DNA of 64,000 nucleotides from a virus (IMGVR_UViG_3300045988_182459:66120-130119), one strand, 5' to 3'. Counted from the stretch's first letter, positions 3,786 to 40,163 are shown. Notes: generated from the letters alone by a model not told the origin. Translations and numbers: made by a program.

Positions 3786-3986
3786 ATAGTTTGTTCCTTA
3801 ACCCCTGGTTACTGATTGTGTGACCGGAGGTTTTCTTTTTCCCTGATTCGCTCCATGCGGGTCAGGAACCACACAAATCGACAGCCTCCGCGCGGCGTGT
3901 GGTGGACAGTGCCCGAATCCTGCTACCGGGCAGCGACAAATGTCGATAATCTCATATTTCTTTTTAATACAAAGGAGACAAATACC

Positions 3987-5123
3987 ATGAACGAAAATGA
4001 AATGCTGAATCCCACTGCCGTTGAAACCAATGAAGCTGCTGTCGCTGCTGCGCCTGGAGAAAATGTAAACGCCGCGCCGGTATCTGAACCGCAGGAACCG
4101 AAAGAGGCTACCGAAGCAGCTCCCGCCGATGAGGGCGTTGACGAAGAAGTCAATGAGGTTCCTCGTGCGACTCGCCGCTTCAATGATGATGACTTGGCGA
4201 TTGGTGCTTTCATTGATGACGGCAACGATATGCTGCATGTCGATATGCCCGAAGACCGCCGCGCTCGTGACCTGGCTGAGATGCGCCGCTGCGTTGCTGA
4301 CAACAAGCACGGTCCTCGACGCTTCCTGCAGGGCAAGGTCTTTGGCGTTCGCCCGGTTCAGAACGGCAGCGCTGTCGTTGAAGTGAGCCGTGGCACGCTG
4401 CGCGTCATGATTCCGGCAGAGGACTTCTTCTACTTCAGTCTGATGAAGGGCATTGAGGAGAACGATGCGACTACCCGGCAGCGCCGTTATCTGCGTAAGG
4501 CAAAGCTGATGAATGGCGCTATCATCAACTTCTGCCCGTACATGGAAGCCAAGTCTGAGGATGGCGAGGTCGTATTCGCTGGCTCTCGTCAGGACGCTAT
4601 GCAGCTCCAGCGCAACCGTCACTTCTTTGGCCGTAATGCGGATGTTCAGAACGGCTCCCGCGCTATCGCTTCTATTCTGTCCAGCGGCCCGGATTACGTC
4701 ATCGCTGAAGCTCTGGGCGTTGAGACCAGCATCGGTGCTGGTGCTCTGTCTGCTTACGAGTATATCGATGATGTATCCAAGAAGTTTCATGTCGGTGAAG
4801 GCATTCCCGTGGTTATCGAAGACCTGAACGTGGATAACGAAAATGGCACTGTCAGCCTGCGCATGAACCGCGCTATCCTGGAACGCCGCGCTAATCCCGC
4901 AATGAACATCCACAGCCTGGCTCGCAACGGCGCTTACGGTGCTACCGTGACTTCCGTTCAGGACAACTACTACCGCCTGATTGTGGATGTTGGCAACATT
5001 CAGGCTCGCGTTGCTCGTACCGCTTCCGATGAACTGCTGACTCGCGGCGACCGCGTGACGCTGCTTGTCTACGGTTACGACGATAAGCGCAACTACGTTT
5101 GGGGCGCTTGCCATAAGGCGTAA
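3987..5123 (+). CDS. hypothetical protein, acidic N-terminus, possible repeated S1/OB-like segments
   Basis: RBS AAAGGAGAC 8 nt before ATG 3987. Coding-like composition and notably GC-rich. The long antisense ORF 3798..5138 is treated as a shadow of this gene. Confidence 0.55.
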   Translation: MNENEMLNPTAVETNEAAVAAAPGENVNAAPVSEPQEPKEATEAAPADEGVDEEVNEVPRATRRFNDDDLAIGAFIDDGNDMLHVDMPEDRRARDLAEMRRCVADNKHGPRRFLQGKVFGVRPVQNGSAVVEVSRGTLRVMIPAEDFFYFSLMKGIEENDATTRQRRYLRKAKLMNGAIINFCPYMEAKSEDGEVVFAGSRQDAMQLQRNRHFFGRNADVQNGSRAIASILSSGPDYVIAEALGVETSIGAGALSAYEYIDDVSKKFHVGEGIPVVIEDLNVDNENGTVSLRMNRAILERRANPAMNIHSLARNGAYGATVTSVQDNYYRLIVDVGNIQARVARTASDELLTRGDRVTLLVYGYDDKRNYVWGACHKA

Positions 5124-5617
5124 CTGAAACCCGGCCACTTACTTTTTCTGGCGAGTGGCCGGATACCGCGCATTGTCATCAGCCTTCTCGCGGCGCGTGG
5201 TGAGCAACTGCAAAAATTGCAGGCCAATGATGACTCTTGTTGAAAATGAATTTATTAAGTGGTGACGAGGTGATTTTTTGTGAGTAGGTGTGCGAATATG
5301 CGGTCGGGAATGTTTCATACGACAATAAATGACACAGAAATTTTTGTTACGTGCAGTATAAATGGGCCATGCGTCAAACTGACGGTCTCTGCGTTCTTTG
5401 AAAGTGATTTATCTGATATTTGCAGTCAGATGCAGGCAATGAAAAGCGAGCCGGTTTTGCTTTCAATGGATGTCTATAAAAACGGTACAGTAGCAAACAT
5501 CAGCGCTATTGGATTATTGTCCAGAAAAGAAAAGGAAGACCAGAATATGCTGATGCAGCTATATCGTAATTGCTGCGCCGCAATGCTTGTATTGGCTCGG
5601 CAAAAGGGGGAAGAAGC

Positions 5618-29054: not shown

Positions 29055-30487
29055 CGAGCTTATCGCAGGCCGCAGCCCTTGATAGAGGCTCACTCTCCAC
29101 AGACTTTAAGATTCGGTCGTCCTGACCGTACTGTTCGCCTGTGGTTATGAGGTGGCTGGCATAGCCAGCATGTCCATTCCTTTCTTTAGAATATTTTCTG
29201 CTGCATTTTTATCCCTATCGTGTGATGTATTACACTTCGGGCAGACCCAATGCCGCACATTGAGGCTTTTAACCTCTTTGTTTTGGTATCCGCAGCAGGA
29301 ACAGGTCTGGCTGCTTGGATAGAATGTTGGTACTTTGACAACTACTCTTCCTGCCCAACTGGATTTATAATCAAGTTGTCGAAAAAATTCTCCCCAAGAA
29401 GCGTCAGAAATACTTTTAGCAAGGTTACGATTACGAACCATACCCTTTACATTGAGGTCTTCTACACAGATGATTTGGTTTTCTTTCACCAGTGTGGACG
29501 ACAACTTATGTAGGGTATCTTTTCGTTTGTTGGTTATTTTTTCGTGGCAGCGAGCCACCTTGATGCGCTGCTTTTCCCAGTTGGCAGAGCCTTTCTTCTT
29601 GCATGACAGTTTTTTCTGCTCACGCTTTAGTTTAGCTTCCGCTTTCTGTAGATACTTATGGTTTGGATGTTCGTTTCCATTGCTGTCAACAGCAAAAGAT
29701 TTGATGCCAACATCCAAGCCGATAGCGACATTCTTAACAGGAAGCGGTGCTACTTCTACTTCGCAAAGAATGCTTACATAGTATTTTCCGCTTGCTGAAC
29801 GACGGATTGTTGCCTTGCAAATACGACCTTCAATGTTGCGGCTTTTGCGATAGCGCACCTTTCCAAGTGTAGGAAGCTGAATGTACTTATCGTCAACTTT
29901 AATGCTTTTTGCTTTAGTAGTTGTATAACTTTCTTCTCCTCTTTTTCGTTTGAATTGAGGGAATCCTTTACCGTCTTTGAAAAAGCCTTTATAGGCATTA
30001 TCTAACTGACGACAGCTATATTTGAGTGCTTGGCTATCCGCTTCAGCAAGCCAAGGAAGATAGGTCTTCATCTGAGGAAGTAGATTTTGCGTATCAATAT
30101 AGCTCATGCTTTCGCCGCGCCGCCTATAGGCTTTTATTCGCCTATCTAATATAGAGTTATATATAAAGCGGCAGCAGCCGAGCGTTTTATTGATTTTTAC
30201 TTCCTGCTCTTCTGTAGGCTCTAGCCGAAATTTATAGCCTTTATGTACTTTCAAGGTGATTCACCTCCTTTATGGATTTTTGTACTTGTGAATTGGTCAA
30301 ACCCCCGGAAAAAGTTGAATAGCCTGTTTTTCTCCTCCCACAATTCTTTCTAACATAATTATATCATATTTTACAGATGGACGGGCCAAAATCGCAACTT
30401 TGTTCATGAATACTTAACCTTTATGCACGAGATTTATTGTTGCCCTAATATATAAAACTAGAGCCCCGTCATCTTGGATGGGGCTCT
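29055..30487 (-). mobile_element. IS200/IS605-family TnpB-only (IS1341-like) element
   Basis: Contains the TnpB gene. Subterminal hairpin AGAGCCCCGTCATCTTGGATGGGGCTCT at 30460-30487 (left end). Right-end hairpins CGGTCGTCCTGACCG and GCTGGCATAGCCAGC near 29115-29172. Boundaries are approximate. Confidence 0.6.
29145..30254 (-). CDS. tnpB: TnpB (IS200/IS605 OrfB RNA-guided endonuclease)
   Basis: RuvC motifs [18 protein letters not shown] and [12 protein letters not shown]. Zinc finger CSCCGY...CPKCN. Confidence 0.9.
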
Positions 30488-30616
30488 TGAGTTGTAGCTG
30501 GAGGTGTATCTCATTTTGTGCCAGGGGTATTGTATGGTAGTTTTCGAAAATGAGTGCAAAAAAACAAACACCAGAAGTCAAACTCAAAAATATCTTAGTC
30601 TTGGCAAGTTTACCCT

Positions 30617-30643
30617 TGCGCTGCTGTGCGAACTTCGTACAAT
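30617..30643 (+). promoter_or_regulatory. box promoter site 0.5: TTGCGC-16-TACAAT with GTGCGAAC in the spacer
   Basis: Read directly. Followed by about 100 nt and then the terminator at 30746-30782. No credible ORF lies between them. Confidence 0.5.
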
Positions 30644-30745
30644 AAGAATTGTACAAGAGAAACGGCAAGAGACATTTGTAGTGATTGTAGTTGGTCGCCA
30701 CGAATCGATGCCGTGTCTGCTTGCGCATAATTACCTCTTTTCGAA

Positions 30746-30782
30746 GCCCACAGGTCATTCTCTCACCTGTGGGTTTTGTTTA
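30746..30782 (+). terminator. intrinsic terminator with a TTTTGTTTATTGCGG tail (overlaps the -35 of site 1)
   Basis: CCCACAGG...CCTGTGGG stem plus a T-run. Confidence 0.55.
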
Positions 30783-30810
30783 TTGCGGAATCGTGCGAAT
30801 TGCGGACAAT
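30783..30810 (+). promoter_or_regulatory. box promoter site 1: TTGCGG-16-GACAAT with GTGCGAAT in the spacer
   Basis: Read directly. Drives a roughly 390-nt leader before the flotillin operon. Confidence 0.55.
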
Positions 30811-30888
30811 TAAAGACAGAGCGATTGCGAGATGGGGCGATACCGATGCAGTAGGAATGAGAATCTTAGCAGCTAAAAGAGTCAACAA

Positions 30889-30924
30889 CCCCGCCTAAAC
30901 CGGTTCGCCGGTTATAGACGGGGC
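30889..30924 (-). repeat. GC-clamped REP/IS-end-like hairpin (inverted copy of the element at 40074-40105)
   Basis: The reverse complement GCCCCGTCTATAACCGGCGAACCGGTTTAGGCGGGG shares GCCCCGTCTATA...TTAGGCGGGG with 40074-40105. Confidence 0.55.
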
Positions 30925-31138
30925 TTGCGGGGCAACCTGTAAGCCCAGTTGATTAGCCTAAGCCCATTGCTCCGGCAGTGGGGAAAACTACGTTGTGTAC
31001 TAATAATATAGGCACCTTATCCATGCTCCACAAGTGGTGAGCTCTGCAGGCGTTTCGTTAAACATCTCCGAGGGGAGGAGAAGTGCGAGCGTCATGTCGA
31101 AAGGCTAAAACAGTGCATAACATTGGCGAAGTGGACCA

Positions 31139-31177
31139 CAGGACGCAAGTCCTGACTTATAGTTTTATTACTATTTT
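31139..31177 (+). terminator. weak leader terminator just upstream of the flotillin gene
   Basis: CAGGAC-GCAA-GTCCTG followed by a U-rich ACTTATAGTTTTATTACTATTTT. Confidence 0.35.
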
Positions 31178-31198
31178 ACGAATGGAGAAACAAAAATT

Positions 31199-32842
31199 AT
31201 GGTATATGTGATTGCGATTGTGGCAGCCCTGATTATTCTCTTTGGATTTCTCTGCTACAAGAAAGCTCCGCCCACGGAGGCTATCGTTGTGACCGGCTTT
31301 GGTCTGTCTAAGCCTAAAGTAGTTTGCGGAAAAGGTACATTTGTTCTGCCCGTTCTTCAGCGGGCTGACCGGCTAAATATGCGCCTTCTGAAAATTGACG
31401 TCAAAACTCCTGAAACAGGTGTTAAGACGAAGAACGGCGTAAGTCTCTGGATTGACTCTGTTGTCACGATTCAAGTCTACAGCGAAAACTCTACCGTTCT
31501 GGATGAAGAAGTGAAGGCATCCGGTCTGAAAGACGCCAAGGCGTACATCATGTCCCGCCAACAGGCAGCCATCTCGAACTTTCTGGGCATGAACGAGCAG
31601 GGCATCAATGAGAAAGTTAATGACGTTCTGCAGGGCAATTTGCGTGAGATTGTCTCTGACATGACCGTCGACCAAATTCTGACGAACCGCAAGCAGATGG
31701 CTGTGAGCGTTATCGAGAATGCTCGCCCCGACCTTGCTAAGATGGGACTTGAGGTCGTGACTTTTAACGTCCAGGATATCAGGGATGCGGTGGATGTTCA
31801 GGGCCACAACCACGGCGTCATTGAGGCTATCGGCATTGAACAGGAAGAGCTTGTGAAAAAACAGGCTGAAATTGCCCGTGCTCAGGCTGCCCGTGATGTA
31901 GCCTGCGCGAAGGCCGATGCTGAGATGGCTGCAAATGCCAAGGAAGTTGAAGCGCAGACTGCGATTGCAAAACGCAACAATGAATTGCAGCTCGCCAAGG
32001 CAAAGCTGAAAGCTGAAGCTGATAAAGCTGCGGCTGACGCAGATGCTGCCGGTCAGATTCAGATGAATCTCCGCGCCAAAGAAATCAAAGAAGCGGAAGC
32101 GGATGCTGAAATCGCCAAGCAGAAGAAAATGGTAGACCTTGCCGCACAGGAAGCCGAGGTCCAGCAACGCAAACTGGATGCGGAAGTCCGCAAACAGGCA
32201 GATGCTGACCTGTACCGCCGCCAGAAAGAGGCAGAAGCCAAGAAATATGAGGCGGAACGTGCAGCTGAGGCACAGAAGTTCTCCAAGCAGCAGGAAGCAG
32301 AAGGCATTGAACTTGTCGGTAAGGCAGAAGCTGAAGCGATTCGTCAGAAAGGCTTGGCTGAAGCGGAAGCCATGAAACAGAAAGCAGAGGCATATAAGCA
32401 GTATAACGATGCGGCTGTGGCTGAAATGCTCATCAAGGTTCTTCCTGACATTGCCAAAAGCGTGGCTCAGCCTTTGTCCAGCATTGATAAGGTTTCTATC
32501 ATTGGCGGTGACGCCTCCGGCGTATCCGGCGTTTCCGGGAACGTTCCTATCCTGATGGCTCAAACCATGCAGACGGTGAAAGAAGCGACCGGAATCGACA
32601 TGGGCGAAATTGTCCGTGCCAACAGCATCCAGGCAAAGACCGACCGCAACATCAACATCATGAATCAAGGCGAACAGCCTGTGAATAGTGAAAAGGAAGG
32701 AGGTGTCAATGCTATGGAACGCGTAGAAGGCGGCTATCTAATTCATGAGAAGAGTCTCAACGGTGAGGAAGTCACTCATTTTCGACCGGATGTGACCGAA
32801 GAAGAGAAGGCTATCATGAAAGACAAAAAGGCCAAAGATTAA
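31199..32842 (+). CDS. flotillin-like SPFH/band-7 protein with a long A/E/K-rich coiled coil
   Basis: N-terminal TM helix. SPFH core ...VVTGFGLSKPKVVCGKGTFVLP.... An (AEA)n-rich helical C-terminus, as in FloT/YqiK. Confidence 0.8.
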   Translation: MVYVIAIVAALIILFGFLCYKKAPPTEAIVVTGFGLSKPKVVCGKGTFVLPVLQRADRLNMRLLKIDVKTPETGVKTKNGVSLWIDSVVTIQVYSENSTVLDEEVKASGLKDAKAYIMSRQQAAISNFLGMNEQGINEKVNDVLQGNLREIVSDMTVDQILTNRKQMAVSVIENARPDLAKMGLEVVTFNVQDIRDAVDVQGHNHGVIEAIGIEQEELVKKQAEIARAQAARDVACAKADAEMAANAKEVEAQTAIAKRNNELQLAKAKLKAEADKAAADADAAGQIQMNLRAKEIKEAEADAEIAKQKKMVDLAAQEAEVQQRKLDAEVRKQADADLYRRQKEAEAKKYEAERAAEAQKFSKQQEAEGIELVGKAEAEAIRQKGLAEAEAMKQKAEAYKQYNDAAVAEMLIKVLPDIAKSVAQPLSSIDKVSIIGGDASGVSGVSGNVPILMAQTMQTVKEATGIDMGEIVRANSIQAKTDRNINIMNQGEQPVNSEKEGGVNAMERVEGGYLIHEKSLNGEEVTHFRPDVTEEEKAIMKDKKAKD

Positions 32843-32963
32843 AGACAACGAATAAAAAGAGGGTGACTCGAAAGAGCCATCCTTTTTTCTGTTGTGACGC
32901 AAACGAAAAGTTCATGGTAGCCATCCAATTAGGGTGACTGTCTTTTTTGCATGTTAAGGCTTT

Positions 32964-32991
32964 GTTGCTGAATCGTGCGAATCGAAGATAA
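32964..32991 (+). promoter_or_regulatory. box promoter site 2: TTGCTG-16-GATAAT with GTGCGAAT in the spacer
   Basis: Read directly. Lies upstream of the 33063 gene. Confidence 0.5.
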
Positions 32992-33062
32992 TTAGAAGCA
33001 AAAGATACTTCGTATCAAGCCCTCTTGATAGCAAATAGAGTAAAACCGGAGAGGTGAAGTTA

Positions 33063-33866
33063 ATGCTCGGCGTGAGTTTGATTATCATAGCAGCGGCTAT
33101 AGTCTACATGGTCGAAACCTATATCAGCACCTATTACACTATCGAATACATGCACGGAACATCGCTGTTCCTTATCCTCCTTGCGAAATATGGCACGCCA
33201 GTCCTGTTCCTGCTGCTCTGCGCCTACATTGCATATCGCAATTTTCTCAAAAAGCAGAAAGCTGCGGCTTCTGCTGCATCTGAACGGTCTACAAGCAAAG
33301 AAGAGCTGTATACCAACAAAATTCAAACGGCAGTAAAGACAAAAAGCGTCTTCTCAGAGCAGGCTGACCAAATGCTGTATCAGGTACGGCGCTTCGGGCA
33401 AAAAATGGCCGTTGCCTACAGCATGACCCAGGATAGCAAGACATCCGGGGAACAAGCCAAGTGCCTAACGTTATTGGAATCCGCAGAACGTATCTTCTAT
33501 GACCGACTGGATGACGCGATTCGCTCGGCTTCAATGTTTGATGAAACGGAATACAAGGCTTTCTGTCAAGGCTCTATCTCGTTTGGAAACAAAGAAGAAG
33601 CGCAGAAAAAGAAAGAAATCTACAATGGTATCGTAAGTACCGTGGATAAGGTAGTTCATGACAATGAGCGCTTAATCCTCCGATTGGATTCTTTAGCATA
33701 CGCTCTGAACCAACGTTCTGCCCAGAATCCGTGGGATACAGAGGTTGTCCTCGCAATGTCTAAGCTAGACGCTGTCATCAACAAGACGACGCAGGACATC
33801 GAGCAGGATGAAGTAATCAGTCGTGAGGCTATGAAACGATATAACAACTTGAAAGGAGAAATTTAA
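33063..33866 (+). CDS. membrane protein (two N-terminal TM helices plus a helical cytoplasmic domain; XpaC/TelA-like architecture)
   Basis: RBS GGAGAGG 8 nt before ATG 33063. No confident family. Confidence 0.55.
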   Translation: MLGVSLIIIAAAIVYMVETYISTYYTIEYMHGTSLFLILLAKYGTPVLFLLLCAYIAYRNFLKKQKAAASAASERSTSKEELYTNKIQTAVKTKSVFSEQADQMLYQVRRFGQKMAVAYSMTQDSKTSGEQAKCLTLLESAERIFYDRLDDAIRSASMFDETEYKAFCQGSISFGNKEEAQKKKEIYNGIVSTVDKVVHDNERLILRLDSLAYALNQRSAQNPWDTEVVLAMSKLDAVINKTTQDIEQDEVISREAMKRYNNLKGEI

Positions 33867-33867
33867 C

Positions 33868-35562
33868 GTGACAAAAAAGAACATTTTCCCTGTAGTTGCA
33901 ACCATTGCTGTGGTAGGCATTGTTCTCGGAGTTTTTTCGATGACGGTGATGAGGGACTCAAACGTCAGCATTAGTACAATGACGTCCGAGCAGGCATATG
34001 CCAACTTGAGCAGCAAGATGAAGCGCATCGGCGTGCAGGAGGTCAAGGTCAATCCTCAGCAGCTGGATGTCTCTGAATTCCTTGATGCAAAGGATGAACT
34101 GCCCGACATTGAATCCTCCTACCCATTCGTGGTCGTAGGAAACGGAGATGTGAACATCGAAATCTTTTCCTCTGGCGAGAAAGCAGCAGAGTCCGGCTCA
34201 GATTCTTTCCTGACAAGCATGGCAAAAAAGTTCAATGCCCAGCACAACAAGACTTCCGGAGACAAGACTATGAGTGTCTCCCTGCGCTCCGTTCCGTCCG
34301 GTACGGCGGCTGAGTACATCTCGACGGGAAAGTATCAGCCCGAGTGCTATACCCCCTCAAATACGCTCTTTGGCGAGCTGGTGAAGAACGAGGGCGTAGA
34401 ATTGACCGTTGAGGCTGACCGTCTGGCCGGCAATGTGGCGGGTATTCTCGTATCAAAGAAGACAGGGGATATGCTTCGCTCTGAATACGGTGAAGCGTCT
34501 GTTTCTTCCGTTCTGAACGCAACCATCGATGGCAAACTCATGATGGGATACTCGAACCCCTACACAAGTGCTACGGGTCTTAATTTTCTGCTTGAGGCTC
34601 TTGCAAGCAGTGGCAGCGATACGATTGTCGATACGGCTGCTGTTGAGAATTTCCAGAAATTTCAAGCGAACGTCCCTCTCGTATCCTTCACGACCCAGCA
34701 GATGGTCCAGTCGGCTGACAAGGGTATCGTGGACGGTGTCGTGATGGAGTACCAGTCTTATCAGAATGACCCGACCTTGCAGCGCAACTACGAATTCATC
34801 CCGTTCGGTGTACGGCACGATAATCCTCTGTATTCCATCGGGAATGTCTCTGCGGAGAAGAAGGAAGTTATTGCTGCGTTCGTTTCCCTCTGCGCCCAGA
34901 ATCAGGCAGAAGCGACGAAGGACGGGTTCAATGGTCTTGACGACTATGCTTATACAGGCAAGGCATACGACGGTAACACCATCGCACAGGCTCAGAGTGT
35001 CTGGAAAGAAGAGAAGGACTCCGGCATTCCTATTGTGGCAGAGTTCGTTGTCGATACTTCCGGCTCGATGCGCGGCGAACCCCTGAATGCCCTGAAAACC
35101 GCAATGATAAACACCATCCAGTATATCAATGACGACAACTATATCGGCATCATTGGCTTTGATTCAGATGTCAGGGAATACCTGCCCATTGACCAGTTCT
35201 CTCTGACCCAGAAAACTCTGTATAAGGGTGCCGTGAACTCCCTCGATGCGAACGGCAGCACCGCAATGTACAACGGTCTTTGCGTTGCTATGGACCGCAT
35301 CTACCAGAAATCTCAGGAACTGGGTGGGAATTGCACGCCCATCATCTTTGTGCTCACGGACGGTGACAACAATACCGGATATGGCTTCTCCGATACGAAG
35401 AACATCATTGCCGGTATGGATATCCCCATTTACACCATCAGCTACAACTACGCAGCGGATAGTCTTTCGGAGCTCGCTTCCATCAACGAAGCGGCAGCTA
35501 TCGTTGGTAACAGCGAGGATATCACCTACAAGCTCCGCAACCTGTTTAACGCAGAGATGTAA
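33868..35562 (+). CDS. membrane-anchored protein with a C-terminal von Willebrand factor A (vWA) domain
   Basis: N-terminal TM helix. MIDAS motif DTSGS, then ...GSTAM... and LTDGDNN. RBS AAAGGAGAA 7 nt before GTG. Confidence 0.75.
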   Translation: MTKKNIFPVVATIAVVGIVLGVFSMTVMRDSNVSISTMTSEQAYANLSSKMKRIGVQEVKVNPQQLDVSEFLDAKDELPDIESSYPFVVVGNGDVNIEIFSSGEKAAESGSDSFLTSMAKKFNAQHNKTSGDKTMSVSLRSVPSGTAAEYISTGKYQPECYTPSNTLFGELVKNEGVELTVEADRLAGNVAGILVSKKTGDMLRSEYGEASVSSVLNATIDGKLMMGYSNPYTSATGLNFLLEALASSGSDTIVDTAAVENFQKFQANVPLVSFTTQQMVQSADKGIVDGVVMEYQSYQNDPTLQRNYEFIPFGVRHDNPLYSIGNVSAEKKEVIAAFVSLCAQNQAEATKDGFNGLDDYAYTGKAYDGNTIAQAQSVWKEEKDSGIPIVAEFVVDTSGSMRGEPLNALKTAMINTIQYINDDNYIGIIGFDSDVREYLPIDQFSLTQKTLYKGAVNSLDANGSTAMYNGLCVAMDRIYQKSQELGGNCTPIIFVLTDGDNNTGYGFSDTKNIIAGMDIPIYTISYNYAADSLSELASINEAAAIVGNSEDITYKLRNLFNAEM

Positions 35563-35681
35563 CTCAAAAGCGCGGTTTTGTCCGCGCAGCTGCTCCAAAA
35601 GACAGCCTCCACGCGGCGAGCAGCGGGCAACGGGAGACAGTCCCGGCAAATTGTCTTTGAGACGGAAGGAAGAAGTGCCCT

Positions 35682-36071
35682 ATGCGAGTACAACAGGTTC
35701 CGAACTCACCCTATTTCATCCATTACGACGATGAGGGCTTTTGCTGTATATCCAAAAGCAGAGAAAGCCAAGAACCTATCCCGGAATCTGAGATGCAAGC
35801 GTTCCTTGATGCAGTAGCCAACGGGTTACTCTACATCGAGAAAGAGCGAAAGAGCAGATACCAGCGCATCGAAGAAGCCGAAAAAGCAGCTTTTGCCAAG
35901 GGTGAAGCGGAAGGTCGAGAAGATAAGCTGCTCGCCACAGTCAAGGAGCTGAAGGAAGAACAAGCGTCAAGAGCAGAGTATGAGCGCAAGCTGCAATATG
36001 AAGTATATGCTCATCATACTTCGCACACCACGAAAACCGAGTGGGTTCGCCTTGGTCGTGGAGGATGGTGA
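35682..36071 (+). CDS. hypothetical protein
   Basis: 129-aa ORF with a coiled-coil-like central region. Confidence 0.5.
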   Translation: MRVQQVPNSPYFIHYDDEGFCCISKSRESQEPIPESEMQAFLDAVANGLLYIEKERKSRYQRIEEAEKAAFAKGEAEGREDKLLATVKELKEEQASRAEYERKLQYEVYAHHTSHTTKTEWVRLGRGGW

Positions 36072-36076
36072 TTGAC

Positions 36077-36415
36077 ATGATGGGAAGCATTCCGATTCCG
36101 AATACAAGATTTTATCTGACCAGCATCGATGGCAAAAAGTGGTTCGTAACAGAATACTACAGAACCGCACCATTTAACCCCGACAAAGAGACCTATGACT
36201 TGTACAAGGCGTTTGCGGAAGCATTCAGAAAGAACGAAATGGAAGAGCAGGAGTTTCAAGAGGAGCTCAAAAAGGCCGTCAATAAAGCTTACGGAAACGG
36301 CTTATACGCCGGACGGCATAGTGTTGATTTCTGGCGGCAACCAGCTTATCATGAACTACGAGCAGGCACAGGAATTGTTCGGCATCAAGTTTCGGCGCTG
36401 GCTGGGCATCTTTAA
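36077..36415 (+). CDS. hypothetical protein; possible frameshift near 36300 (the alternative frame continues to 36422)
   Basis: The N-terminal part is coding-like. The last ~40 codons look out-of-frame (R/H-rich). The +1 frame reads a natural-looking ...GIVLISGGNQLIMNYEQAQELFGIKFRRWLGIF. Confidence 0.4.
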   Translation: MMGSIPIPNTRFYLTSIDGKKWFVTEYYRTAPFNPDKETYDLYKAFAEAFRKNEMEEQEFQEELKKAVNKAYGNGLYAGRHSVDFWRQPAYHELRAGTGIVRHQVSALAGHL

Positions 36416-37750: not shown

Positions 37751-38350
37751 ATGAGCTATGAACCCATTATCACACCGGGCAGGAATTTCTTTCTTGTCTC
37801 GACGGAGTACAAAGAGAGCAGCTCTGCCTGGTGCCGCAAGCAAATTAGAGCGACACTGAGGACCTGTCAGGGACGAGTCATCATCATTGATGCAACGGGC
37901 GAGTACGCGGACTTGGCGCTTGAACATGACAGATTGATTCGAGAGAAAATCCCGTCCATCATTTATCGGTATAAGCTGGTGGACGGGAAACCGTATATTG
38001 CTCATGTCATTGAAGTTGATACGGAAGCAAATGAAGCACCGCACCTGATTGTATACGATATCAGCCGGACCATAATCACCAGCTGGAAGGTCGGCGTGGA
38101 GGCAATTGATAAAATCCTACAATCCTATGCCGTGATGCAGGACAGTGAAATCGCGTGGCTGTATGTTCCGCTGGACTTATATACCAATGTCAAGCCCGAA
38201 AGCGAATCCTGGAACATTTTGGAACGAACTATCAAGGGTAATGAAGGCAAGCTCATGACAGTACTGACGACTCGCAAATTCACCATTGGGATGGTCCAGC
38301 GCTGTTTGCATATGGCAAAAATCAAAAATAATTTGGAGGATAACAAATGA
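37751..38350 (+). CDS. hypothetical protein
   Basis: RBS AGAGGATAAAC before ATG. 199 aa. Confidence 0.5.
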   Translation: MSYEPIITPGRNFFLVSTEYKESSSAWCRKQIRATLRTCQGRVIIIDATGEYADLALEHDRLIREKIPSIIYRYKLVDGKPYIAHVIEVDTEANEAPHLIVYDISRTIITSWKVGVEAIDKILQSYAVMQDSEIAWLYVPLDLYTNVKPESESWNILERTIKGNEGKLMTVLTTRKFTIGMVQRCLHMAKIKNNLEDNK

Positions 38351-39234
38351 CCAATGAACAGCTGAGAATCGCATTGACGGCGAATGCCGTTACCAAACAA
38401 ACCCGAAACCATTTTGGATTCAGTGACCCGTGTGGAAAAACGCTGGAAGAATACAACAAGTCCGCGATGCTGTGCTGCATGACAGCGGCGCAGAGAATGA
38501 ACACGCCGGGTTTTGAGCGTGTTTTGGCTGCGCAGATTTTTCCCTGCTTTACCATTGGCTGCTGGAATCAGACGAAGACGGTCTATGATTTTGACTACGA
38601 GTTTCAGAAAATGCTGATGGATACGGATGACGTGGCAATTCATCAGGATATCCTGCAGCGACTCCCGGTTCGTGATTTCTTTATCCCGGTGTATGACAGC
38701 TACGACTACAACGGTATGTTCGTGCATGTGGAATTCGACGAAAAAGAGAAAACCACAGCTTTCGGTATCGTTCTTGTCGGCCCCACTAAGGGCAGCCACG
38801 ATGATTTCACGTTCCTGACTCTGCCTGCCTGGGCCAAGGAAAATCAGAGTTTGACGGAAGCAACTCGGAGCACGAAAGAATACCTGGAAAAGGCAGCAGG
38901 GCAGCGGCAAGTAAATGGTATCAGCGTACCGGCTGCGATGGAAGCAGTCCCTTCGGTCTTTGACGGCGGCACACCTTATGTCCGGCTGGCAATCCTGTGC
39001 GCCAACTATCTTGCCAGCAAGAACCCTGATGTCTGCTTGGAAACTTCCAAAAAGCGTGACCGCCCGGTATTCGTGTTTCAGGGAAAGGCACAGCGAATCA
39101 ACGTCAAGACATATACCGTTGGTGAGAATGCGGCCAAAGAATACAAAAAGAATGGGGAAGGCAAAACTCCCCGCTGGCGGCATTACTGGTGCGGCAATGG
39201 CCGGGAACGCCGGGAATGCAAGTTTATTTACTGA
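38347..39234 (+). CDS. hypothetical protein
   Basis: Start overlaps the upstream stop (ATGA). 295 aa. Confidence 0.5.
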   Translation: MTNEQLRIALTANAVTKQTRNHFGFSDPCGKTLEEYNKSAMLCCMTAAQRMNTPGFERVLAAQIFPCFTIGCWNQTKTVYDFDYEFQKMLMDTDDVAIHQDILQRLPVRDFFIPVYDSYDYNGMFVHVEFDEKEKTTAFGIVLVGPTKGSHDDFTFLTLPAWAKENQSLTEATRSTKEYLEKAAGQRQVNGISVPAAMEAVPSVFDGGTPYVRLAILCANYLASKNPDVCLETSKKRDRPVFVFQGKAQRINVKTYTVGENAAKEYKKNGEGKTPRWRHYWCGNGRERRECKFIY

Positions 39235-40073: not shown

Positions 40074-40105
40074 GCCCCGTCTATAGCCGTAAGGCTTAGG
40101 CGGGG
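40074..40105 (+). repeat. GC-clamped REP/IS-end-like hairpin GCCCCGTCTATAGCCGTAAGGCTTAGGCGGGG
   Basis: Homologous to 41858-41888 and, inverted, to 30889-30924. The GCCCCGTC arm also occurs in the IS hairpin at 30460-30487. Confidence 0.55.
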
Positions 40106-40163
40106 TTAGCTCGTGTTTTGGAGCAGAAATCAGAAATTATTGTTTTCCGTTCTGATAAAGGTA

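Follow-up and report, generated by a model that had tools for sequence, protein, structure and literature searches.

The structured leader of a plasmid-borne flotillin gene is very probably an orphan HEARO/IscB omega RNA

HEARO RNAs are the omega RNAs of IscB, a transposon-encoded RNA-guided nuclease, and have a transposon end as their boundary (Meers et al., preprint 10.1101/2023.03.14.532601; review PMC13565253). Protein-less elements with omega RNAs are also known, and a use of such RNAs in trans has been proposed (Meers et al. 2023 preprint, 10.1101/2023.03.14.532601); the PATE-like elements described there have an omega RNA without a nuclease, would need IscB in trans, and retain the transposon ends on both sides and exist in multiple copies. 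Here we analyse a related case in a stretch of 64,000 nucleotides (nt), one strand, from the viral record IMGVR_UViG_3300045988_182459:66120-130119, referred to below as the window. It belongs to a conjugative element encoding a VirD4/TraG-type coupling protein and a VirB4/TraG-like ATPase. The region studied, 30783-35562, holds a recurring promoter-like box, a long leader and genes for a flotillin, a protein with two transmembrane helices (2-TM protein) and a membrane-anchored vWA protein. An earlier note on this sequence had read it as a three-gene operon behind a riboregulator. Our analysis indicates with high confidence that the leader is an orphan HEARO/IscB omega RNA, the relic of an IscB element of the IS200/IS605 family in the 5' untranslated region (UTR) of the flotillin gene. 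It is like HEARO (RF02033) in giving a full-length match above threshold whose start, with the end hairpin, falls on the transposon boundary, and unlike it in having no IscB gene, the flotillin gene being in its place, and no other transposon end. PATEs likewise lack the nuclease; the window block differs from them in having one end and a single site.

The leader (30811-31198, 388 nt) is non-coding and lies between the box at 30783-30810 and the flotillin ATG at 31199. It folds at -124.7 kcal/mol (z = -3.0), beating 100 of 100 shuffles. An Rfam scan of the 64 kb at gathering thresholds gave two matches, HEARO (RF02033) and a hepatitis delta virus (HDV)-like ribozyme (RF02682) that is discussed further below. 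The HEARO match covers the full model (30881-31141, model positions 1-211) at 91.2 bits (E 3e-17), the gathering score being 83. Even at E up to 10, the leader gave no match to a cis-regulatory Rfam family. We define the solo, iscB-less omega-RNA block as 30881-31182 on the + strand; at 302 nt it makes up most of the leader.

For comparison we fetched related loci, plasmid or chromosomal, which carry L-numbers here. Window positions 30881-31187 align to the omega-RNA end upstream of iscB in intact elements with 70-86% identity, the best (86%) being a short-type copy in L027. This control copy, 85.7% identical, scores 95.9 bits and stands directly upstream of an intact 465-aa IscB. The homologous copies in L006, L024 and L027 all lie before IscB; directly 3' of the window block the open reading frame (ORF) is the flotillin gene and not IscB (RuvC/HNH), and tblastn with IscB across the 64-kb window found neither iscB nor a remnant of it.

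Individual parts of the fold agree with this assignment. The first stem-loop of the omega RNA (30889-30924, + strand, CCCCGCCTAAACCGGTTCGCCGGTTATAGACGGGG) is paired in the HEARO alignment and is the subterminal transposon-end hairpin; a similar hairpin is found at the far end of the IscB elements in L006 and L024. The 3' hairpin of the omega RNA with its T-rich tail (31139-31154, + strand) gives a terminator-like match and also precedes iscB in L006, L024 and L027, with a compensatory exchange of A-U for G-C (GGACGCAAGTCC vs GGGCGCAAGCCC). Ten predicted base pairs are kept through double-sided changes, among only five sequences of this omega-RNA subfamily. The earlier note had thus seen real objects: a long, strongly folded non-coding leader behind a recurring box, a GC-clamped hairpin belonging to an insertion sequence (IS) end with an inverted relative elsewhere (at 40075-40107 on the - strand) and a weak terminator before flotillin. 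Both hairpins are part of the omega RNA. Its expectation of a conserved RNA structure was likewise borne out, while the covariance search of the leader returned HEARO where a riboregulator of the operon had been suggested.

The inverted copy at 40075-40107 (- strand) is a solitary, intergenic hairpin of the IscB-IS-end type (CCCCGCCTAAGCCTTACGGCTATAGACGGGGC), present also in L008. It is probably all that is left of a further element from the same IscB family.

Homology to the autonomous copies begins at GTCAAC, where the HEARO model has its position 1 and where the L006 and L024 elements have their insertion boundary when compared with their own empty sites. It stops at ACGAA, after which the autonomous copies go on with AGGAGTATCTTGCATG (iscB ribosome-binding site (RBS) and start) and the window with TGGAGAAACAAAAATTATG (flotillin RBS and start). 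The flotillin RBS, GGAG at 31184-31187 (+ strand), therefore stands at the right junction, ACGAA|TGGAG, which we compared with both the empty site (CTGAATATGGAG) and the iscB RBS (ACGAAAGGAG). In the autonomous elements of L006 and L024 a far-end hairpin, CACCGCCTAAGTCGCAAGCGACTATAGACGGTG, follows about 100 nt past the iscB stop codon; no counterpart of it was found before flotillin, so that the block does not have the two ends of an IS. The block occurs at one site only, in the window and in all fetched loci.

Empty alleles of the same site exist. L006, L048 and L050 are without exactly the 302-nt block and have the sequence ...AGCTAAAAAA CTGAATA TGGAG...; in full, L006 reads ...CTTAGCAGCTAAAAAA CTGAATA TGGAGAAACAAAAATTATG where the window reads ...CTTAGCAGCTAAAAGA [GTCAAC...TTTTACGAA] TGGAGAAAC... 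The insertion boundary deduced from the empty alleles falls within 2 nt of HEARO model position 1. Among 17 related contigs chosen without regard to the flotillin upstream site, 14 were filled and 3 empty, and a scan of metagenomes for the empty-type right junction added 13 further independent contigs (L031-L043), all of them plain empty sites. HEARO is absent from the diverged relatives of the TM/vWA module (70-80% identity) and from its chromosomal relatives. The leader is therefore variable in homologous elements and not conserved, an outcome that the earlier note had itself named beforehand as telling against its reading. The 7 nt CTGAATA are present in the empty allele and absent from the filled one; since the empty allele holds sequence that the filled allele is missing, it is not a deletion derivative of the latter. 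Flotillin as cargo within an IS was considered and rejected, as the empty-site alleles carry flotillin without IS sequence.

An identical flotillin protein is encoded on many human-gut metagenome contigs of 200-280 kb. Neither the PLSDB plasmids nor the INPHARED phages gave a match in a megablast search with 29000-36200.

We propose that the filled allele arose in two steps. A full IscB element, with the order end hairpin, omega RNA, iscB and far end on the iscB sense strand, would have inserted in sense orientation between the native box promoter and the flotillin RBS. A later deletion of about 1.6 kb, running from the iscB RBS (AAGGAG) to the flotillin RBS (ATGGAG), would then have taken iscB, the far transposon end and the 7 nt of target (CTGAATA). 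The product would be an intact 302-nt omega-RNA scaffold joined directly to the flotillin RBS, with flotillin where iscB had been. With one transposon end left, the block should no longer be able to transpose. The upstream promoter would read through it as part of the flotillin 5' UTR, and a folded RNA with a hairpin/U-rich element, not a dedicated sensor, would so have been added ahead of flotillin. As the scaffold is intact and IscB genes lie on related plasmids, IscB from elsewhere could still load it in trans; the 16 nt just upstream of the scaffold (30865-30880, + strand, CTTAGCAGCTAAAAGA) would then be the guide, a putative function by analogy with other IscB systems. The structured leader is real, and it is already explained as a known kind of mobile-element relic and not a dedicated regulator.

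One of the solo copies at this site is a recombinant. L052:19547-19884 is a chimeric solo HEARO with the same two junctions, whose 5' half is of the window type and whose 3' half is the IscB-linked long type of L006 and L024 with a 35-nt extra hairpin; a 420-aa IscB is encoded 1.7 kb upstream on the opposite strand. This chimera indicates that omega-RNA copies exchange sequence by recombination or gene conversion.

Some observations weigh against the proposed history, or at least against its details. The left junction is not clean, with AAAAGA in the filled and AAAAAA in the empty allele and 7 nt of target gone, and the exact order of events at the junctions is our reconstruction. Among the 13 empty-junction metagenome matches, none carried a full IscB element ahead of flotillin. 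Transcription through the block, its processing and its binding by IscB are all predictions from sequence. Furthermore, the filled allele is the majority, and in L052 the 3' half of the solo copy has been exchanged with an IscB-linked copy; together these could mean that the block is not neutral.

The autonomous elements themselves offer a hint about target choice. One intact IscB element (L006:19010-20905) is inserted in a Mor-family gene, and in L023-L030 and L055 an intact element lies beside an ImpB-like polymerase gene. The right flank starts with (A)TGGA in all three cases, namely GATGGACG, AATGGATT and the (A)TGGAG of the solo copy. This suggests a target-adjacent motif of about ATGGA, which resembles an RBS; with three cases it is a lead and not a result. 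The intact elements are not simple insertions: compared with L007 and L048, those at L006:19010-20905 and L024:3634-~5525 have 218 bp and 341 bp of target replaced, and the replaced DNA of both lay between two ATGGA/AAGGA motifs. This could have come about by two insertions close together and a later recombination.

The box upstream of the leader (30783-30810, + strand, TTGC-N7-GTGCGAATTGCGGACAAT) is native to the flotillin upstream region, as it is also found in the empty-site alleles and is kept in L006 and L008. Its motif, TTGC-N7-GTGCGAATTGCRGACAAT, occurs five times, always on the + strand, at 30626 (with 3 mismatches), 30793, 36484, 37694 and 42690, and a variant lies at 32965-32992 (+ strand, motif at 32975). 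The box is a real repeated upstream motif. That it launches the leader, as had been claimed, found no backing in a sigma-70 consensus scan, which gave no + strand promoter for the leader or the box; the promoter activity of the box and the transcription start are putative. The motif stands upstream of several + strand genes, among them a Mor-family activator gene, and looks like a plasmid-specific promoter or operator regulon.

Directly 5' of the box, a hairpin at 30746-30775 (+ strand) has 10 bp followed by a U-run (CCCACAGGT...ACCTGTGGGTTTTGTTT; -18.4 kcal/mol, z = -3.8) and is likely a terminator insulating the putative flotillin promoter. Further upstream, a TnpB (IS605 OrfB) element of 1329 bp occupies 28996-30324 (- strand) and is absent in L001, L008, L049, L051, L056 and L057. 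It sits between the RBS and the ATG of a 465-aa gene, whose ORF is thereby 486 aa in the window, and it has at its 3' end a weak RAGATH-18-like match (29039-29103, 27 bits, under threshold).

Behind the leader, the flotillin gene (31199-32842, + strand) encodes 547 aa with SPFH/Band_7 and Flot regions (PF01145, 6e-22; PF15975, 1e-9) and an N-terminal hydrophobic anchor at residues 1-24. Flotillins in Bacillus are partnered by NfeD. The window protein is like Bacillus FloT in its N-terminal anchor, SPFH/Band_7 domain and flotillin C-terminal region; it is unlike FloT in being plasmid-borne, in having no NfeD seen beside it and in scoring 269 bits against the NCBIfam FloT model, under the 700-bit equivalog cut-off. 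The gene is followed by a terminator-like hairpin with A-run and U-run flanks (32855-32888, + strand; -17.8 kcal/mol, z = -4.3); a terminator pattern scan flags the complementary hairpin on the - strand (32879-32864) and a separate + strand site at 32922-32936. Next come the second box variant (TTGCtgaatcGTGCGAATCGAAGATAAT, 32965-32992) and the gene of the 2-TM protein (33063-33866, + strand; 267 aa from the ATG, or 270 aa from a GTG at 33054). This protein has two N-terminal hydrophobic helices and a cytoplasmic helical-bundle domain. It has no Pfam, NCBIfam, PADLOC or PDB match; its AlphaFold2 model is all-helical (pLDDT 78.5), and a fold search led to generic helical bundles only. The third gene (33868-35562, + strand) encodes a membrane-anchored protein of 564 aa with a substrate-binding-protein (SBP)-like part and a vWA domain (Pfam VWA, 3e-15), one N-terminal TM helix (4-31) and an intact metal ion-dependent adhesion site (MIDAS) (DTSGS 396, T 465, D 498). 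It is 42% identical over its full length to a 561-aa protein of L044 with SBP_bac_11 and VWA domains.

The gene identities given in the earlier note accordingly hold, with Pfam, TM and motif evidence in agreement. The single operon is not confirmed, and the SPFH plus vWA triad is not conserved: flotillin is set apart from the 2-TM gene by a hairpin and a second box, and synteny shows that only the 2-TM/vWA pair is constant while upstream partners differ. The 2-TM gene is always followed by the vWA gene in relatives (L011-L014, L016-L021, L044-L047). Where plasmid relatives have a 2-TM protein of 70-80% identity, the gene upstream of the pair encodes PhoH/PIN_4 or an unknown protein, and the PhoH/PIN_4 type has a 286-aa Band_7 protein two genes further upstream. 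L001 retains flotillin and has the 2-TM and vWA genes replaced by TnpA and a TnpB-like element. On chromosomes the pair occurs without flotillin in Anaeromassilibacillus senegalensis, a Clostridium sp., a Hespellia metagenome-assembled genome and related metagenome contigs. There are thus probably two transcription units, one for the FloT-like flotillin and one for the 2-TM and SBP-vWA pair, and the genes behind the leader are ordinary accessory cargo.

What the pair may do is suggested by its relatives. In Hespellia-type loci (L013, L044-L047) TelA directly follows the pair; there a 243-aa 2-TM protein, an SBP_bac_11/vWA protein (561 aa) and TelA (374 aa) stand in a housekeeping context in Lachnospiraceae-like genomes. 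Pfam has no model of this 2-TM family. Given this linkage of its chromosomal relatives to TelA, we take the pair as a candidate cell-envelope or oxyanion stress module. XpaC combines a pair of N-terminal TM helices with a helical domain in the cytoplasm, an architecture that the window 2-TM protein shares. The chromosomal relatives, standing immediately upstream of TelA, are also like the Firmicutes TelA clusters (xpaC-telA); the window is unlike them in having no TelA, and its 2-TM protein has no Pfam match, XpaC included, at E up to 10. The xpaC-telA cluster has been reported as an envelope-stress and daptomycin-response cluster (PMC6811118). Two points weigh against the stress assignment: it draws solely on the gene neighbourhood of relatives, and no TelA is found beside the pair in the window or in the plasmid relatives. 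The earlier note had also been reminded of TerY-type vWA proteins in tellurite-resistance-like clusters. Of that link the adjacency to TelA on chromosomes stands; the TerY part does not, as no TerY-P match was found and neither a Ser/Thr kinase nor a PP2C phosphatase partner lies beside the vWA gene. TerY is cytoplasmic. The intact MIDAS of the window vWA protein is TerY-like, and its N-terminal TM helix and substrate-binding-like domain, from which an extracytoplasmic location of the protein is predicted, are not.

Other accounts of the block have to be set against an orphan relic. One holds that the solo omega RNA is transcribed from the flotillin promoter and kept as a trans guide, with IscB from elsewhere on the plasmid or in the host cutting plasmid copies or competitor plasmids with the empty site, which are then either turned into the filled allele by recombination or eliminated. 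The 16-nt flank 5' of the scaffold and the empty-site allele CTTAGCAGCTAAAAAA are identical at 15/16 nt, with one mismatch. The scaffold reaches scores like those of IscB-linked copies, IscB genes are frequent among related contigs of 200-300 kb (in L052 one lies 1.7 kb from the solo copy), the filled allele predominates by 14 to 3, conversion of the L052 3' half by the IscB-linked type points to ongoing exchange, and trans use of protein-less omega RNAs has been proposed (10.1101/2023.03.14.532601). However, no IscB is encoded within the 64-kb window, the empty allele and IscB coexist on one contig (L006), and the predominance of the filled allele is explicable by hitch-hiking on a successful plasmid clone. 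The empty allele moreover has CTGAA after the target, whereas the three flanks suggest an ATGGA motif, and the single guide mismatch falls 2 nt from the motif-proximal end. Mismatches near that end are usually the least tolerated in the seed regions of Cas9 and IscB. We therefore regard the trans-guide account as unlikely, and hold equally little confidence in the wider notion that a nuclease-less omega RNA, kept within the 5' UTR of a plasmid gene with good expression, acts as a trans guide in drive or in competition between plasmids. A cis-acting riboregulator (riboswitch, attenuator or thermosensor) evolved for the flotillin/TM/vWA operon would fit the 5' UTR position, the strong fold and the terminal hairpin with a U-rich tract just before the RBS. 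The whole fold is nevertheless that of the HEARO family with no cis-regulatory Rfam match, the same hairpin and U-tract also precede iscB in autonomous elements, the 100% identical flotillin protein occurs without the block in many samples, and all diverged relatives lack it. This idea is already largely refuted, and we consider it very improbable. Slighter still is the chance that the block is a still-mobile, non-autonomous PATE-like mini-IS moved by TnpA in trans. It does have one genuine transposon-end hairpin, Y1 TnpA genes are present on related contigs, and protein-less elements have been described (10.1101/2023.03.14.532601); against this, the far-end hairpin CACCGCCTAAGTCGCAAGCGACTATAGACGGTG is missing, homology stops at the iscB RBS, and the block is found at a single place in the window and in all fetched loci.

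A different kind of alternative concerns the proteins: the products of all three genes would join in a single complex, either a scaffold for conjugation or a phage-exclusion system. In its favour, the genes follow one another in the same direction on an element that is conjugative and encodes a VirD4/TraG-type coupling protein and a VirB4-like ATPase, an SPFH protein is encoded two genes upstream of the TM/vWA pair in L016 and L017, and defence, anti-defence and toxin-antitoxin cargo abounds in the region. Yet a terminator-like hairpin and a separate box divide flotillin from the pair, L001 has flotillin and has lost the pair, relatives have the pair with other neighbours, and chromosomal pairs go with TelA and without flotillin. 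The trio lies more than 20 kb from the genes of the type IV secretion system (T4SS), and at E up to 0.01 PADLOC gave no relevant match for the trio or the genes around it. The earlier note had raised links to the conjugation machinery or to phage exclusion; we found nothing that ties the genes to the T4SS or to known defence systems, and a common complex seems unlikely to us. An orphan omega RNA ahead of ordinary cargo is the reading that we prefer.

The 3' end of the region holds the second Rfam match. An HDV-like ribozyme (HDV-F-prausnitzii, RF02682) at 35589-35658 (+ strand) matches the full model at 60.4 bits, against a gathering score of 44, and starts 26 nt past the vWA stop codon. Self-cleavage is predicted at 35588|35589, the 5' edge of P1, and a tight hairpin, GCGCGGttttgtCCGCGC (35570-35587, + strand; -12.6 kcal/mol, z = -3.3), stands directly 5' of the predicted site. 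Cleavage would cut the vWA mRNA from the transcript of a downstream 129-aa gene. The ribozyme is like drz-Fpra (RF02682) in its full match at 60 bits and in that P1, P2, P3 and P4 are readable; it is unlike it in its setting, as the window copy occupies the 3' UTR of a plasmid-borne vWA gene and borders a variable region, the described F. prausnitzii HDV-like ribozyme being upstream of glmM (PMC6765202). In contrast to HEARO, the diverged plasmid relatives L017 (57 bits) and L019 (64 bits) have this ribozyme in the corresponding place. In L004, L005, L008, L009, L037 and L042 its 3' half is replaced, with a recombination breakpoint inside the ribozyme right after P1.

Other mobile and accessory features surround the region. 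L001:12398-14540 is an IS200/605-type element, present also in L005, L009, L010, L049 and L051, with a Y1 TnpA (133 aa) and a 578-aa TnpB-like protein that is unusually long and gives weak OrfB_IS605 and TNB matches only; the site of the element varies between contigs. In the window, 3798-5138 has a G+C content of 0.56 against about 0.47 and long ORFs that overlap on the two strands (446 aa and 435 aa); Pfam gives no match for the one on the + strand. A 295-aa protein encoded at 38347-39234 (+ strand) is annotated as AcrVA2-like (PF26125) in related contigs. Around it lie type I restriction-modification, RE_NgoFVII/PLD, PIN-PhD and HipA-like genes that differ by plasmid variant, and these surroundings are an accessory defence/anti-defence hotspot.

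These results remove a false lead, since the region holds neither a new riboregulator nor a flotillin-vWA operon for a conjugation scaffold. Two other finds are worth describing in their own right, namely the uncharacterised and widespread module of 2-TM and SBP-vWA proteins (with TelA) in Clostridia and a plasmid-borne HDV-like ribozyme in a 3' UTR. The leader offers a natural example of an IscB element decaying into an orphan guide RNA inside the 5' UTR of a host gene, and as filled, empty and recombinant alleles coexist in human-gut plasmid populations, its history is directly readable. It also provides a test case for OMEGA systems, both for the use of an orphan omega RNA in trans and for an insertion preference just upstream of an RBS. 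If the RBS-like motif of about ATGGA proves true, elements of this IscB family would be steered into 5' UTRs, where host promoters would supply the 5' guide.

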